From Eledone cirrhosa (Eukaryota), in NCBI GenBank assembly GCA_964016885.1, contig OZ024743.1:124930001-124994000 (forward strand): a stretch of 64,000 bases of DNA. Reading direction: 5' to 3'. Below, in pieces: positions 4,937-58,860 of the stretch. The notes beneath the pieces are model-generated. The model saw nothing but the letters and a program-made list of their open reading frames with translations. It was not told the origin of the DNA and did not search any database. Each line of letters starts with the position of its first letter. Position 1 is the first letter of the stretch. A program made the translations under genes and the position numbers.

Positions 4937-5282
4937 CATCATCATCATCATCATTTCATTTTACGTCCGCTTTTCCCTGCTTGCAAGGGTGGGACAGGAA
5001 CTGATTTTGGCTTGATTTCTACAGCTGGATGCCCTTCCTAACACCAACCTCATTTACAGTGAGTGCTGGGTGCTTTTTTGCCGTGGCACCTCCACGACCA
5101 CTTTGCAGTGGAATGATAGGGACCCCAGACCCTATCATCTCATTTCTACAGCTGAGTAAACTGGAGCAATGTGAAATAAAGTGTCTTGCTCAAGGAAACA
5201 ACACATCACCCAGTCTGAGAATTGAACTCACAACCTTTCGATTGCAAGGCCAATGCTCTAACCACTAAGCCATGTGCCTCCA
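4937..5282 (-). mobile_element. CORE-SINE
   Basis: Near-identical to 1523-1868. Confidence 0.92.
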
Positions 5283-5446: not shown

Positions 5447-5791
5447 TCATCATCATTCATCATTTCATTTTACGTCCACTTTTCCCTGCTTGCAAGGGTG
5501 GGACAGGAACTGATTCTGGCTTGATTTCTACAGCTGGATGCCCTTCCTAACACCAACCTCATTTACAGTGAGTGCTGGGTGCTTTTTTGCCGTGGCACCT
5601 CCACGACCACTTTGCAATGGAATGATAGGGACCCCAGACCCTATCATCTCATTTCTACAGCTGAGTAAACTGGAGCAATGTGAAATAAAGTGTCTTGCTC
5701 AAGGAAACAACACATCACCCAGTCTGAGAATTGAACTCACAACCTTTCGATTGCAAGGCCAATGCTCTAACCACTAAGCCATGTGCCTCCA
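5447..5791 (-). mobile_element. CORE-SINE
   Basis: Near-identical to 4937-5282. Confidence 0.92.
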
Positions 5792-11954: not shown

Positions 11955-14505
<2,551 letters not shown>

Positions 14506-14720
14506 TCTATCTATCTATGCGTGTATGTATTGCATGTAGATATATGTACATGTATATTGGTACCAGTTTCTGAGGAGGAGGAATTTCAATAGCATGATCT
14601 GAATATATTGTGCAATACCAGAAACATGGCATTGTGTGTGTCAAAATATTCAACAATGATCACTTTGTAAAGCTTCAACATTAACTCTATTTAGCGTATA
14701 TAAGCGTGAGTGGGATCGTG

Positions 14721-33615: not shown

Positions 33616-36600
33616 CATCATCATCATCATCATCATCACCGTTTTACGTCCGTTCTTCCATGCTAGCATGGGTTAGACAGGTTGTTCTGTTGTGGGCAGT
33701 GTCTGGTCGGCTGACCATGCCTTGCTCATACAGGAACTGATTTTGGCTTGGTTTCTACAGCTGGATGCCCTTCCTAACACCAACCTCATTTACAGTGAGT
33801 GCTGGGTGCTTTTTTCCGTGGTGCCTACACGTCCACTTTACAGTGTGGGCTGGGTACTTTTTTGCCGTGGCACCTCCACGACCACTTTACAGTGGGAGGG
33901 TGTGGGGGCATATTGCCTATATACTTCAACTTGTACCCATGGGAGGTCAGGTACTCTGTATTACTGCGTGACGCCAGAGGTCACAGTCGTGTGTCATCGC
34001 CTTTGAGAGGTGCAACTGGGTAAGGTCGGCCCCTATCACCTCATCCCAGGTCTTCTTGGGTCTCCCTACTCTGCGGTTTCCATCGACTTCTAGTGCTCTG
34101 CACCTTTTTATGCAGCTGTCATCCTTCACACGCATCACATGTCCATACCAACGCGACCGCCTCTCCTGCACACAGCATTTGATTCCTCTTATGCTCAGTC
34201 TCTCTCTCAATTCATTTATGCTTTGCCGTTCACGTATATTACTGTTACACATCCATCGGAGCATGCAGGCTTCGTTTCTTTCTAATCTACGTAAGTTTTC
34301 CACCTTCAGCGCCCAGGTCTCACTACCGTGTAACATTGCTGTTCAGATACACGCATCATACAGTCTGCCTTTCATTTTGAGGGAGAAGCCTTTTGCAGCT
34401 AGCAGTGGCAGTAGTTCCCTGAACTTCTTCCATCCTGTTCTTACCCTAGTTATTGTACTTTCTGAACACCCACCTCCGCTGCTAATTCGATCACCTAGGT
34501 AGCAGAAGCTGTCTACTGTTTCTACAGAGCCCTGCCAGAGATTGGTGGTACTTGTTTCCTGTGGCTGTTTGCTGCTTGCTGTCCCAGCACAGCTGCTACA
34601 TGTGAAGCCTTCATTCTTAATTAAGCTTCCTGAGATCCAGCTACATCTTTTGTGTACCCATTGTTTGCATTTGGGGCAGAGAATGGAGTTCCTACCTACA
34701 CCTTTCCTACATACTGAGCAAGGCCATTTCCCTGAGGGAATCTGGGTTCTGTTTTCTCGTCTACTTACAAGGACCTTAGTCTTTGTCATGACTTTGAGAC
34801 CCTTTCTTTCTAGTCCCTGCTTCCAAGTTTGGAATTTCTTCTCTAGTTCTACCATAGATTCAGCTATAAGTGCGAGGTCATCTGCATACAGGAGTTCCCA
34901 TGGGCATCCGGTCTTAAACTCCTCCGTTATTGCCTGCAGGACTATGATGAACAGGAGAGGGCTAAGAACAGAGCCCTGGTGGACACCAACCTGTACACTA
35001 AATTCCCCGCTATACTCATTGTTAACCCTAACTTTGCTGACTGCTCCCCTATACATGGCTTGTACAGCTTTCACAAGCCATTCATCTACTCCTAGTTTTC
35101 TAAGAGCCCACCAGATTATAGCACGTGGAACTCTGTCAAAGGCTTTTTCCAGATCGACGAATGCCAGGTAAAACGGCTTACTTTTAGCTAGGTACTTTTC
35201 CTGTAACTGCCTCACAAGGAAGAGGGCATCAGTGGTGCCTGTTCCTGGTACAAACCCAAATTGCATCTCATCTAGTTTCACCTGGTCCCTAATCAACTGT
35301 GATATAACTCTTTCTGTTACTTTCATCACCTGGTCCATCAGCTTTATACCTCTATAGTTTCCTCTATCTAGTGCATCACCTTTACCTTTGTAGCAGTTGA
35401 CAATGATGCTACTACACCAATCTTTTGGTATGACACCTAGTATTACCTGGTTAACAATACGTGTGGTTATAGTGTGACCTACAGACCCAGATGCCTTCAG
35501 CATCTTGGCAGCTATACCCGATGGATGGGTTGCCTTCCCCATCTTCATATCTTTGATTGCCTTACTTACTACGCTGCTGCCGACTTGTACTGCTGGCCCC
35601 TCTATAGGGTCTACTTGGGGTAGGGTCTCTTCTTCCCATGCATTCTCCTCATTTAGTAATCTATCATAATGGCTCTTCCATGCATCTTTCTTCTCAGTAC
35701 TTGTGAGGGCAAGCTCACCTTTATCATTCCGGATACACTTCTCTCCAATGACATCACAATTCTCTCTGACACACTGCCTCGCAATCTTGAACACCTCCTG
35801 TTTCTGGTCCTCACGTTGCAAAACATGCTTGAATTTTCTATCCTCTGCTTCCCTCCTAGCTAAGTATACTTGTCGCCTAGCTTCCCTCTTGGTCTCTATG
35901 TAATGTACGCTGCTTCCCCCATTCTTCCATTCTTTCCATGCCTGTCTCTTGGCCTTAACTGCCTCCTCTACCTTATTGTTCCACCACCAAGTCACTCTCC
36001 TCCTGCTTGTGGTCTTACTCCAGCCACAGATCTCATCCGTCACCTCTAGTAAGTTATTGTTTAGGAACTCCCAGTGCTCTTCTACATTGAATGTCTCTAT
36101 CTGTTCTTCTTTACTGTCGTAGGTATTGAGAAAAATATCTTTAAATCTGTTACTGGCTGAGGGGTCTTTCAGCTTCCAGATCTTTCTTCTCCAGGTTGGC
36201 CTCTGTTTCCAGGTTCGTCTAGTTCTGTCTGTGAGGTCGCTGACAACTAAGCTATGTTGGGAGGTACATTCCTCACTAGGGAAGGCTTTTGTGTTTACGA
36301 CCGTCCATCTCTCACGTCCTCTGATGAGGATAAAATCTAACTGACTAGAGTGCTCCCCTGATCTATAGGTGATCAAGTGGTTGTCGGGTTTTTTGAAGTT
36401 TGTGTTACATGTCATTGGCGTCGCAGAATTCTAGAAGCCTGAATCCTTCTTCATTTCTTGTGCCAACCCCATGGTCTCCATGGACTCTATTGAAGCCGTC
36501 ACAGTGTTTACCTACGTGTCCGTTAAAATCTCCTGCGATGATTAAGAAGTCATTGTCATTTGTTAGAGCAGTAGTGTGCATTAGGGACTCGTAAAACCTA

Positions 36601-39784: not shown

Positions 39785-40162
39785 TGGAGGCACATGGCTT
39801 AGTGGTTAGAGCATTGGGCTTGCAATCGAAAGGTTGTGAGTTCAATTCTCAGACCGGGTGATGTGTTGTTTCCTTGAGCAAGACACTTTATTTCACATTG
39901 CTCCAGTTTACTCAGCTGTATAAATGAGATGATAGGACTGGGGTCCCTATCATTCCACTGCAAAGTGGTCGTGGAGGTGCCACGGCAAAAAAGCACCCAG
40001 CCCACACTTCAAAGTGAACGTGTAGGTGCCACGGAAAAAAAGCACACAGCACTCACTGTAAATGAGGTTGGTGTTAGGAAGGGCATCCAGCTGTAGAAAT
40101 CAAGTTCCCGTCCCACCCTTGCAAGCAGGGAAAAGCGGACGTAAAATGATGATGATGATGAT
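39785..40162 (+). mobile_element. CORE-SINE (long-tail variant)
   Basis: Matches 27939-28320. Confidence 0.92.
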
Positions 40163-47968: not shown

Positions 47969-48260
47969 CTAATCCCATTGGGCCGTTCGGGTCTGTGCGT
48001 ACCCGTTCCCATGCTCCCGGCATGCGCCACCCGGAGGATTCCATGCTGCAAATGTGCATCTTCTCTGGTGTCTGCAGGTCATGATAATTTCAGACTTCAG
48101 GTTGACGGAGTCATCTTTCAGTCTGACTATCTCCATGGCCTCGTGTAGGCACAATCAGCACTTTCTACTTCCGGCCGAATATGCCCTCACTTGGCGAACG
48201 ATACTCCATTCCAGGGCCTATGGAGTGCCTTGGCCTTTCAGGTCCGCTAACCTAGTAGAG
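47969..48260 (-). pseudogene. Penelope-like element GIY-YIG-associated C-terminus remnant
   Basis: STRLADLK...LEWSIVRQVRAYSAGSRKC*LCLHEAMEI...VNLKSEIIMTCRH resembles the PLE WSI..Y..CxLCLxE..LNKRSE..CRH pattern. Confidence 0.8.
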
Positions 48261-48312
48261 TGCCTTTTGCTACGGATATATTAGGTTAACGCTTGATATA
48301 GCAGGAAGGGGG

Positions 48313-48348
48313 TCTTATCGTTTCGGATGCTAGTCCTTCATCAGAAGA
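48313..48348 (-). ncRNA. Minimal type I hammerhead (PLE pLTR type)
   Basis: TCTT-CTGATGA-A-GGA CTAGCA TCC-GAAA-CG-AT-AAGA; U16.1 is altered. Confidence 0.7.
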
Positions 48349-48430
48349 AAGAATGAGAAATAAGATAGATTGAGGGGACGGAATTGGAAAAAATGTTTTT
48401 AGATAAAAATAACAGGTCCATTCATGTTGA

Positions 48431-49783: not shown

Positions 49784-49877
49784 GTCCAGCAGAAGCAAGG
49801 GGGACAACCGTCTATGCATTTCAGGCATGACTGGCCTTCGTCAGGACGGTCCCTCCCACCGCTTGCTACTGCTGGAC
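49784..49877 (-). ncRNA. Intact type I hammerhead ribozyme with extended stem I
   Basis: ACCGTC-CTGACGA-AGGC CAGTCAT GCCT-GAAA-TGCA-TA-GACGGT (49850 to 49807); further helices AGCAAG/CTTGCT and GTCCAGCAG/CTGCTGGAC. Confidence 0.88.
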
Positions 49878-50420: not shown

Positions 50421-50542
50421 TTAAATAATGGGATAGAGGACCCCCATGAAAGGACCTGTTATTTTTATCTAAAGACATTTTTTTCCAATTCAAACCCGCC
50501 CGTCCATCTATTTCATCCCAGTCTATCTTATTTCTCATTCTT

Positions 50543-50578
50543 TCTTCTGATGAAGGACTAGCGTGCGAAACGTTAAGA
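50543..50578 (+). ncRNA. Minimal type I hammerhead (same family as 48313)
   Basis: TCTT-CTGATGA-A-GGA CTAGCG TGC-GAAA-CG-TT-AAGA; palindromic AACGTT. Confidence 0.72.
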
Positions 50579-51805
50579 CCCTCTTCCTGCTATTTCAAGC
50601 GTTAACCTAATATATCCCTTCCATATACTGTACCGATTGTGTTGTTATTTCTGTTTACCTTTTACACACACATATGTGTGTGTGTGTGAGTATGACAAGG
50701 GAAAAGCAGTACCCATGATCCTTTCAGACGAGTATGAGAGAGGAAGGCATGCCTAATCCTGAGGCCTGGCCCAAATGCTTGCAACAGAGTCGACTCCACC
50801 AAAGGCACCCAAAGATTAAGTTAGAGTGTTAAACCGGGCGATAGATTAAGTCTACTATACAAATAGGCCATTGCTGGATTTAAACTTATAAATAATGCAA
50901 AGAGTGTGAACAAATATTGCAAAGCATACGGTCTTACACCGAAATGATTATTCCAGCCCACCACCTTAACTAGTCTATTTATCGACTCCGGAGGGATGAA
51001 GGGTGAATTTGATCGCAGAGCGTATAAAGCTGACACTAAGTTAGCTATGAATTCTTTCCAACAACTCTGAGATGGTATTTTATTTTATTTCAGATAGGAT
51101 TTTAAAAGCAACAGCAGCCGCAGAAAATATTCGACTCTTTATTAATTCTATCTAAATTTTCATTTATTTCTGGAATGGAAGTTTCTTTATCACATTTATC
51201 AAGTCTAACATCGGTAGCCTTCCAGGAAGAAACTACATACAATTAAGAAAAATGTCTATATTGACCATTGACTGGCTGCAAATGTGAATTGAATGTACCT
51301 ACATCGGTTTCAACGATGAATGTTCCAGCTGTTAGATTACATGAACAGCCTGAGTATTCCACAGTTACTTGTACCCTTAACTGAAAGATTCAACGTGATA
51401 GTATGTGAAAGATCTAGCCCTTTGAATTACAGGTACAGTCCATCTGACGGGCTTCCAAACAGTTTCCGTCTAGCCAATTTCACTCACAAGGTGTGGGTCT
51501 ATCGTAAGTGACACTCGCCCAGGATGACACGCAATGGAATAGAACCTAAGACCTAGTGGTTGTGAAGCGAAATTCTTAACAATTCAGACATGCTGTATCT
51601 TTTGTGGAGGTGTAGAAAATTAGACACCCAATTTCTATTACAACATTGAAATATGTGTATTTAGGAGATTAGTATCGGTGTACATATATGCATTATCAGA
51701 AATGATAATAAATGCCGGTGTGTGTTGTGACTTCACAGAAGTCAAATGGATTAATATAAATAAATGGTTACCCGTTGGTCACAACTCCTAGGCTGAAGTG
51801 TGTGG

Positions 51806-57010: not shown

Positions 57011-57289
57011 AAGTAAAGTGGTTATATATATAACGAAGGAAGTGTGGTAAGGAACCAGATGGACCATAACGCACCAGAGTACTCAATACTTAGGGTAGTA
57101 GAGTGGGTAATAGGAAAATGTTTAATCCCGTCGGGGTTAAACATTTTCCTATATATATATATATATATAAACGGAAAAAATGAAACGAAATTCCATTTCT
57201 CACTCTTGGTACGGCTGTTACTTAAATATAAGTATGTATACGTACATACATATATGTATACAGGCGTACAGTAGTATGTATATATACTA

Positions 57290-57363
<74 letters not shown>

Positions 57364-57505
57364 CATGCACACATATATATATGTACGTATGGATTCACCG
57401 AACATTTATTATAATGCTCGGTGTGTTTTTAAACAAACATCCCGAATTAAGCCGTACAGTGTCTAGCAACCATCGTTGCTCATTTGTTCAACACTGACAA
57501 AGGAA

Positions 57506-57546
57506 AGCTGTACTAGTTTCAAACTCATTAGCTATCGTCAGCAACG
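57506..57546 (-). ncRNA. Type I hammerhead (array copy 1)
   Basis: CGTTG-CTGACGA-T-AGCT AATG AGTT-T-GAAA-CTAG-TA-CAGCT. Confidence 0.75.
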
Positions 57547-57792
57547 TATACCTTCCTGCCATGGTTGAACGTCTGAAAGTATATACTTTCCTTATGCATA
57601 TTAACGGCTGAGCAGCCTAATTTGCATATCGAGTGAGTTAATCGGCCGGGGTACCGAAAACGATAAACGGAAAAAATGAAGCGAAATTTCATTTCTCACT
57701 CTTAGTACGGCTGTTACTTAAATACTACTGTACGTCTGTATACATATATGTATGTACGTATACATACTTATATTTAAGTAACAGAAGGTATA

Positions 57793-57833
57793 CGTTGCTG
57801 ACGATAGCTAATAAGCTTGAAACTAGTACAGCG
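57793..57833 (+). ncRNA. Type I hammerhead (array copy 2, best preserved)
   Basis: CGTTG-CTGACGA-T-AGCT AATA AGCT-T-GAAA-CTAG-TA-CAGCG. Confidence 0.82.
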
Positions 57834-57977
57834 TTCCTTTGTCAGTGTTGAACAAATGAGCAACGATGGTTGCTAGACACTGTACGGCTTAATTCGGGAT
57901 GTTTGTTTACAAACACACCGAGCATTATAATAAATGTTCGGTGAATCCATACGTACATATATATATATGTGTGCATG

Positions 57978-58014
<37 letters not shown>

Positions 58015-58239
58015 TACTGTACGTCTGTATACATATATGTATGTACGTATACATACTTATATTTAAGTAACAGCCGTACTAAGAGTGAGAAATGAAATTT
58101 CGTTTCATTTTTTCCGTTTATCGTTTTCGGTACCCCGGCCGATTAACTCACTCGATATGCAAATTAGGCTGCTCAGCCGTTAATATGCATAAGGAAAGTA
58201 TATACTTTCAGACGTTCAACCATCTGGCAGGAAGGTATA

Positions 58240-58280
58240 CGTTGCTGACGATAGCTAATAAGCTTGAAACTAATACAGCG
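58240..58280 (+). ncRNA. Type I hammerhead (array copy 3; stem III G to A)
   Basis: Same as copy 2 except CTAA in place of CTAG. Confidence 0.72.
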
Positions 58281-58428
58281 TTCCTTTGTCAGTGTTGAAC
58301 AAATGAGCAACGATGGTTGCTAGACACTGTACGGCTTAATTCGGGATGTTTGTTTACAAACACACCGAGCATTATAATAAATGTTCGGTGAAACAAACAA
58401 AACACAGGAGGCAATTTTTACATAGGTT

Positions 58429-58860
58429 TTCCACCCTGACTATACCTTCAGATGTATGCCTGTAATTATTGGGGGGCTGGGATATGTTAGTAACTGTCTC
58501 AATACAAATCTTGAGAATCTGGGCTTCACAGAAACAGAAGGAACACGACCAGCTAGGAAATTACAAGTACAATCCATTGATGGAACAGTAAAAATGTCTA
58601 AAACATTCCCAACATTCTGCATCTAACAACTGCATATACAAATACAAAGCATATGCACATGCACACATACAATTCAAAACATCCACATCTACACATACAA
58701 TAAGATCCATACATGTACACACATGCATGCATGCAGACATGCATACATATCTACCTAGTTGATGTTGTGTAAATTCCAATGTGAGAGTCTTGTAACTATG
58801 TTAGAAACCGACTCTCTCTATTGGTAAAAATTTATGAAATTATAAAACCAGAAGAACATA
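58429..58860 (+). pseudogene. R4/Dong-like (RLE-type) non-LTR retrotransposon 3' end
   Basis: FHPDYTFRCMPVIIGGLGYVSNCLNTNLENLGF...KLQVQSIDGTVKMSKTF (stop at 58626), followed by a UTR and (CATA)n. Confidence 0.7.

Follow-up and report, generated by a model that had tools for sequence, protein, structure and literature searches.

A probable non-LTR retrozyme of Eledone cirrhosa in head-to-head inverted form, likely mobilised in trans by a Penelope-like element

At positions 57,167-58,392 of a 64,000-nucleotide stretch of the Eledone cirrhosa genome (the window, to which all bare coordinates below refer), non-coding units with hammerhead ribozymes (HHRs) lie both in tandem and inverted. A preliminary description read them as a retrozyme-like array that had been copied from a circular RNA. 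The question that the locus raises is what kind of element this is, and how a sequence that encodes no protein comes to be inserted as two opposed arms. The answer that we favour, with a probability of roughly 0.7, is a non-LTR retrozyme in a head-to-head inverted insertion, likely mobilised in trans by a Penelope-like element (PLE) of the Neptune type.

The locus and its hammerhead ribozymes

The features of the locus are collected in Table 1, in which units are numbered from u1 = 57784 and the 447-nt reference unit is 57784..58230 (+); E1 and E2 are two end sites that are described below. The left arm is an inverted copy, as had been proposed, 93.7% identical over 379 nt by self-BLAST, and its sense 3' terminus is an E2 end that runs into (TA)n at 57150-57169. 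The right arm (57724-58392) consists in all of u230-290, u1-447 and u1-162, with u291-447 (157 nt) skipped after the first piece by a template jump or a deletion. Its segment 57784-57945 recurs at 58231-58392 with 99.4% identity, a single base distinguishing the two repeats, and the locus as a whole ends at one E2 site and one arbitrary site. HHR cores (CTGACGA...GAAA..TA) are found at 57798 (+), 58245 (+) and 57541 (-); the two on the plus strand, with stem I starting at 57793 and 58240, are indeed the 447 bp apart that the preliminary description gave. It was also right that the unit is non-coding (longest ATG ORF 70 aa in a dimer of the young unit, and 127 aa in an older unit with a long TA tract) and that its internal (TA)n tract is variable, the length differing from copy to copy. 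No PLE protein match falls on the window locus and no LTR-like structure is seen in the mapped copies. Read-through of both arms would yield a predicted RNA of ~560 bp, 93% paired.

Table 1. Features at and next to the retrozyme locus (window coordinates)
Feature	Position	Strand	Remarks
Unrelated short head-to-head insertion	57031..57152	.	Different repeat, also targeting (TA)n, with a pair of fixed ends of its own
Left arm: a complete unit and the tail	57167..57723	-	u277-447, u1-338; self-BLAST, unit mapping
Tail, terminal copy (E1-E2 stretch)	57167..57228	-	Hairpin just before E2
HHR 1	57499..57555	-	Intact core (at 57541); stems I and II weakened by private changes; predicted cut after 57511
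ATGCAAAT in left arm	57620..57627	-	
Tail, second copy	57663..57723	-	At inversion junction; source of terminal redundancy; 3 differences in 62 nt
Start of right arm	57724..57784	+	u230-290 piece (also given as u229-290), joined to left arm over shared TA
Whole 447-nt unit	57784..58230	+	E1 (about 58062) and E2 (58121) read through
HHR 2	57784..57840	+	Commonest family haplotype; predicted cut after 57828
Predicted 447-nt monomer	57829..58275	+	Inferred, from one plus-strand cut site to the other
TA-rich tract and long self-complementary hairpin	57949..58065	+	Ends just before E1
ATGCAAAT in right arm	58157..58164	+	Within 12-nt invariant block; 88 nt upstream of HHR core
HHR 3	58231..58287	+	Rare G-to-A at 58273 (ACTAATA, not ACTAGTA) breaks palindrome; predicted cut after 58275
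Partial second unit	58231..58392	+	Ends at u162, without E1/E2 end or (TA)n flank

The surroundings hold other repeats. The short insertion on the left (first row of Table 1) belongs to a high-copy repeat whose fixed ends, in (TA)n, are separated by ~80 nt; its two arms likewise stop at one site each, and the insertion uses the same (TA)n as the left arm of the retrozyme. Another abundant repeat (2,522 candidates) starts at 58430-58560, 37 nt beyond the truncated right end. Elsewhere in the window are a LINE-type remnant at 34343-36430 (-), with a 694-aa open frame containing a reverse transcriptase (RVT_1, E 1e-28) and a PHD finger, a degenerate (TA)n array of 2.5 kb at 11959-14518, and weak tRNA matches just above the Rfam cut-off (5211-5274, 5720-5783 and 39795-39852) that are probably the heads of tRNA-derived SINEs.

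Rfam returns no hammerhead at the window locus, either at the gathering threshold or at E<=10, yielding only miRNA noise from the TA hairpin, so that the HHR call rests on motif and covariation. Of 207 distinct copies, 176 have an intact core (CUGANGA / GAAA / UH), as do the three copies of the window. Around it the family folds so that stem I has 6 bp and is accompanied by a bulge and an outer stem, stem II has 4 bp, stands on a U.U pair and carries the loop AAYA, and stem III is the palindrome ACUAGU; HHR 2 has these stems and the bulge (with ACTAGT in the DNA). These dimensions (helix I of 6 bp, helix II of 4 bp and helix III of 1-2 bp with a palindromic loop, the palindrome being broken in the copy at 58245) are those of the canonical metazoan type I HHR, for which a dimer is needed (PMC4209133). 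The usual G10.1-C11.1 at the base of helix II is absent, U.U taking its place in 280 of 281 motif instances (overlapping loci unmerged), for which the axolotl retrozyme HHR_Amex2 provides a precedent (PMC7229834).

Differences between subfamilies spare the core, and the third pair of stem I occurs as T.G (128), G.T (47), A-T (13) and C-G (5). Seven of 17 pairs change on both sides and stem I is 100% paired, while controls with slid partners give 0-2 such pairs. The comparison used 12 of 16 haplotypes, each present at two or more loci (the four omitted have single damaging changes and include two window copies); none of 500 shuffles reached the same covariation, a figure that is not a probability because the rows are related and two rows from a sister family supply most of the double changes. 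That the stems have been kept by compensatory change across families only 60% identical argues that the fold was selected as they spread. In folding predictions the circular monomer has a z of -11.6 and its non-TA part a z of -8.8 (25 shuffles each), with stems I and II present in the MFE structure. Against the predicted cleavage, 8 of 9 Xenopus retrozyme dimers failed to cleave in vitro (bioRxiv 10.64898/2026.07.22.740005).

The G-to-A change in the second plus-strand HHR is rare, at ~0.1% by depth in sequencing run X1; a much higher apparent frequency of ACTAATA, 16%, was set aside as query bias, 23 of its 24 cases lying in best-hit loci. It lowers the predicted stability of the dimer helix III from -5.6 to -1.9 kcal/mol, and with stem III thus damaged the window copy is probably a weak source. 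It also alters the joint expected of a circle from this locus: a released monomer would join at AUA|CAGCG and not, as had been suggested, at GUA|CAGCG.

The octamer ATGCAAAT, rightly placed upstream of the HHR in the preliminary description, lies in a 12-nt block that is invariant across young, older and sister units; the intact octamer occurs in 87 regions and any one variant in at most five. Newt satellite 2 has been cited as having an snRNA-type promoter (PMC2220036). Since the block is also the 5' arm of a predicted RNA hairpin, a promoter role for it is a possibility only.

A young family of tandem units

The locus is one of many. Three non-overlapping exact motifs were searched in the genome (3.0 Gb in 1,796 contigs) and gave at least 27,983 HHR-bearing units (13,167 + 11,990 + 2,826), with reversed-pattern controls at 0. 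The 13,167 matches come from a single 18-mer of the HHR; against a control of 0 they mean that the repeat is not a chance occurrence, and they dispose of the alternative that the unit exists at a single locus. Units measure 420-510 nt, most of the variation residing in the internal TA tract, and arrays extend to ~35 units. Two or more adjoining units with one type I HHR each are seen in the window (57798/58245) and in arrays, two HHRs within one arm being found in only about 3 of the first 24 insertions. The family is still young, some insertions having no private changes. CpG decay is present in its copies; an ADAR footprint is not (A>G 4.97 and T>C 4.79 per 1,000).

Arrays bear on the nature of the template. 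In one of seven units there is a single variable column over both arms. Three others (L143, L227 and L118, with 15, 8 and 11 shared columns) alternate two unit variants in the order ABAB, which would follow if the template was a dimer circle or if a dimer was duplicated afterwards; these and other mixed arrays can also be explained by linear read-through or by local duplication at a later time.

A weak, tail-like match in the search for a driver element led to no coding PLE, and instead to a non-coding sister family with a collinear unit of 467 nt, ~60% identical, and 7,297 exact matches (regions L202 and L255-L268; for example, G000:C1:30830000-30843500). Its HHR shares the AACA loop and the ACTAGT palindrome with the main family and has a G-C base of stem II and a GUU triplet. 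One of its arrays is inverted, with 18 identical units over both arms; another has at least 30 units over 14 kb.

In these features the family resembles the metazoan non-LTR retrozymes of coral, mussel and axolotl (PMC7229834), and newt satellite 2, as non-coding tandem units of a few hundred nucleotides. It has in common with them one type I HHR per unit with a short palindromic helix III that needs a dimer, a strongly self-paired predicted monomer and thousands of dispersed copies. Its unit is at or above the 150-450 range of those retrozymes, and the internal (TA)n hairpin sets it apart, as do fixed ends, targeting of (TA)n and frequent inversions: the available text of PMC7229834 is without these, the word 'inverted' occurring in it 0 times. 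No cephalopod or octopus retrozyme was found in the literature, where the supplements of PMC7229834 and PMC4209133 and subscription papers may list one; the words ribozyme and retrozyme are absent from the available text of the 2026 Octopus repeat annotation (PMC13282606). The family is likely to be a further member of the known class of non-LTR retrozymes and a non-autonomous PLE passenger.

Fixed ends, inverted pairs and the likely link with Penelope-like elements

Sense 3' ends of the family occur at two fixed sites 59 nt apart, E1 at ~u279 and E2 at ~u338. The 5' ends vary. At most E1 and E2 ends the unit gives way to (TA)n, 3-5 letters being common to both, while at a few it does not; E2 ends counted with one spacing only, which is not a total, come to 1,288. 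In run X1, whose contigs were placed on 58075-58392 only (part of the right arm), 59 loose contig ends pass from 58121 (E2) into (TA)n; low-depth matches in runs of two further organisms (B and C, with 9 and 10 contigs) were set aside. Target-site duplications are unreadable where ends sit in (TA)n, and many 5' junctions are outside TA. One insertion (L054), read by eye, has no (TA)n at either end; it lies apparently within a LINE ORF, with a short target deletion, and its flanks suggest that the TA runs are targets rather than added tails.

The strictest regularity appears in the inverted insertions. Among 120 merged regions there are 83 head-to-head pairs, and 54 of these join one E1 end to one E2 end, with no E1+E1 and no E2+E2 pair; one typed end and one 'other' end make up 25 more, and the remaining four have edge or two untyped ends. 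The 54 include a local duplicate (L179) and a pair that possibly consists of fragments of a broken chain (L230), and several of the 'other' ends reflect a chain that was broken at the TA tract. Single arms also end mostly at these sites (48 of 58: 32 at E2 and 16 at E1, with seven 'other' and three edge). In the sister family, all 11 fully typed inverted pairs from 17 regions are E1+E2. Since the 120 regions were chosen as best hits, as the first on contig C1 or by hand for having hits nearby, they give no estimate of how frequent inversion is. Among the first 24 distinct insertions found by BLAST, 11 are inverted, and the combination of tandem and inverted copies to which the preliminary description drew attention, though real, is as regards the inversion an ordinary form of insertion and not peculiar to the window locus. 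E1 and E2 arms do not differ overall in private changes (193/9,422 and 212/12,765).

This regularity changes the meaning of the terminal redundancy of the left arm. The redundancy itself is real (57167-57228 is repeated at 57663-57723), but it is not by itself a sign of a circular template, since the stretch is the PLE tail between E1 and E2. Of the rolling copying that had been proposed, what stands is that a template of more than one unit was copied; the redundancy alone does not show that it was circular.

Both arms of a pair appear to come from the same source. At subfamily-diagnostic sites the difference between opposite arms is 5.7% (64 loci) and that between units of one arm 8.6% (78 loci), against 35.5% for random pairs; this sharing of subfamily alleles makes one template per event likely. 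Inner ends lie within 2 nt of each other in 9 of 50 typed pairs (3 in the TA tract), which points to joining at self-complementary sites. When the extents of the arms are compared, one fits inside the other in 30 of 41 testable pairs and neither fits in 11 (12 were skipped). Retrozyme arms are also found head-to-head with truncated 3' parts of other PLE-type families (L005, L028, L045, L057, L135, L138 and L175). We considered twin priming on two RNAs as an origin of such chimeras and dropped it: among five typed joins, two are mixed and three are same-type, which sequential insertion explains. These joins, mostly without TA between the partners, are probably sequential insertions with target deletion.

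Several of these traits have counterparts in PLEs. The anole element, in vitro, has two internal reverse transcription start sites that define the genomic tail, and cuts AT-rich DNA on both strands, a dimer being predicted (PMC11167929). Inverted insertions, a tail at one end and a bias towards microsatellites are known PLE traits (PMC8557442, PMC3846280). Taken with Penelope, Poseidon PAc, Neptune and Naiad (PMC11167929, PMC8557442, PMC3846280), the retrozyme shares two internal starts, a tail on one end of the inverted insertion, head-to-head inversions with palindromic junctions and AT-rich or microsatellite targets. It differs from those PLEs in having no ORF, a tail of 59 nt where 30-40 is quoted, and an HHR that is canonical and not minimal. 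The rule of one end of each kind is counted here (54/54 and 11/11), whereas the available texts of these papers put it as 'often' or 'optionally'.

Potential sources of the required protein are plentiful. A scan for GIY-YIG domains gave 10,596 candidates in the genome. Coding PLEs here, with ORFs of 844-1,096 aa among them, combine reverse transcriptase, GIY-YIG and an upstream CxxxxCxxC motif that has been given for Neptune and Nematis (PMC8557442/PMC3846280), and in two coding families whose termini were inspected these likewise fall at a pair of fixed sites in (TA)n. The first end of one coding family resembles the E2 of the retrozyme over ~13 nt, a likeness that was not counted, since all of these families end in a pyrimidine-rich stretch and then TA.

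HHR-like sequences of other kinds also occur. In the window, 48026-48430 (-) and 50440-50620 (+) are 83%-identical, opposite copies of a different, minimal-type HHR region, the former adjoining a decayed match to a GIY-YIG C-terminus (34%, E 4e-11), and a lone HHR-like motif lies at 49844 (-). A young coding PLE family (L091, L092 and L100; ORFs up to 938 aa) has an HHR-like motif ~1.3 kb past the end of the ORF, with a core that by eye apparently has U3-A8 in place of C3-G8; the motif of a related family is more degenerate.

Priming, joining and what the inversions may mean

Twin priming is familiar from L1, where two cDNAs started from opposite target strands are joined at microhomology and leave a 5' inversion; there the second cDNA is primed at an arbitrary site and shares no overlap with the first. 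The retrozyme differs in having two fixed sites and overlapping arms. The strict E1+E2 rule is most simply read as the outcome of priming twice on one RNA, once at each site.

Within the favoured explanation, events would run as follows. Tandem copies would be transcribed; the ACUAGU palindrome would bring neighbouring HHRs together as a cleaving dimer, and a host ligase would circularise the monomers thus set free. A PLE protein would nick both strands of a (TA)n site, and reverse transcription would be primed internally on one RNA, at E1 from one strand and at E2 from the other. Each cDNA might extend over anything from a fraction of a unit to many units, and the two cDNA ends would join at short self-complementary sites, producing an inversion with the tail on one arm only. 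A tentative proposal, held at less than even odds, is that one PLE complex starts two cDNAs on the same retrozyme RNA circle, at two fixed sites and from opposite strands of the (TA)n target; the seven near-identical and 18 identical units that run across both arms of their arrays favour a circular monomer as template. Among the points against the main explanation as a whole are the lack of homology to the unit in 55 PLE loci, a stem II that stands on U.U, the failure to match Rfam and the small number of arms with two HHRs.

The inversion could instead arise from one primed strand that folds back and primes itself, the endonuclease cutting the second arm at the other fixed site, so that no second priming takes place. 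Junction palindromes have been read in that way in rotifer PLEs (PMC3846280) and the tail has been interpreted as endonuclease resolution (PMC8557442). The coinciding inner ends, the many pairs in which one arm fits inside the other and the alleles common to both arms would all fit. Pairs in which neither arm fits inside the other speak against fold-back, though later deletion at the centre of the palindrome could cause them, and the complete absence of same-kind ends among the 54 is left unexplained, although multi-unit arms offer such sites. We regard this route as rather unlikely.

The template of a non-autonomous PLE passenger could instead be a linear, multimeric read-through transcript, in which case neither circles nor HHR cleavage would be needed for mobility. 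A free 3' end is not required for internal priming, and insertion of the anole PLE in vitro was not reduced by HHR mutations (PMC11167929); the ABAB and mixed arrays noted above can be accommodated, and the terminal redundancy, being the tail, asks only for a template longer than one unit. The compensatory changes that preserve the HHR stems are harder to reconcile with such a template, and the young insertions with seven and 18 near-identical or identical units come most simply from a monomer circle, although identical units could also stem from a source array that was uniform or from smoothing in the assembly. On balance a linear template seems unlikely.

The window locus itself has irregularities. 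Its left arm has private changes at 7 of 315 sites and its right arm at 0 of 410 (p 0.003, as one of 27 such tests), a disparity that a single insertion event does not predict and that may reflect replacement of the right arm or later rearrangement. This disparity, together with the internal skip and the missing normal 3' end, would suit a family that is real and a plus-strand tandem that is a later local duplication, a conversion or an assembly artefact. Yet both arms carry the same subfamily alleles, the two repeats of the right arm differ at one base, and other loci, L032, L033, L035 and L058 among them, also have pairs in which one of the arms stops at an arbitrary site, all of which makes a secondary origin of the tandem doubtful.

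The preliminary description already named the alternative that the repeat is the pseudo-LTR (pLTR) belonging to a coding PLE. In that case the copies would be fragments truncated at the 5' side. This is very improbable: every pLTR hallmark is present (HHR, tail, inversions and (TA)n) and coding PLEs are abundant, but copies pass through E2 into the next unit and not into an ORF. Among 120 regions (118 with an HHR), 25 have a PLE protein match, and in none of them does an arm follow it in the sense direction. Homology to the unit was not found in 55 PLE loci (50 GIY-YIG and five extended, a sample of part of the PLE families), and a pattern that excludes the unit's own upstream sequence brought up no recurring alternative in the first 100 of its 5,103 hits. 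With neither PLE homology nor an ORF continuing into the arms in these samples, the unit is better seen as a passenger.

The reading of the family as a PLE passenger agrees with work on vertebrates (bioRxiv 10.64898/2026.07.22.740005), which came to the same conclusion, that retrozymes are non-autonomous PLE derivatives, from co-occurrence with PLEs and from pLTR homology (24 of 57 Xenopus families). Here it is the insertion junctions themselves that bear the PLE signature. A large young retrozyme family with a sister in a 3-Gb animal genome is, as an element, modest news. The PLE literature, in its available texts, calls the origin of inverted repeats and tails unresolved; the strict rule of one E1 and one E2 and the alleles shared between arms limit the models that can be entertained for both, and sharpen a trait that was known qualitatively. 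If double priming on one circle is true, it would account in a single step for three traits of PLE insertions in general, namely inverted repeats, a tail on one side only and arrays of several units. The retrozyme offers a short RNA with two defined start sites, and this 28,000-copy family and its sister would then constitute a minimal natural substrate for testing PLE integration.
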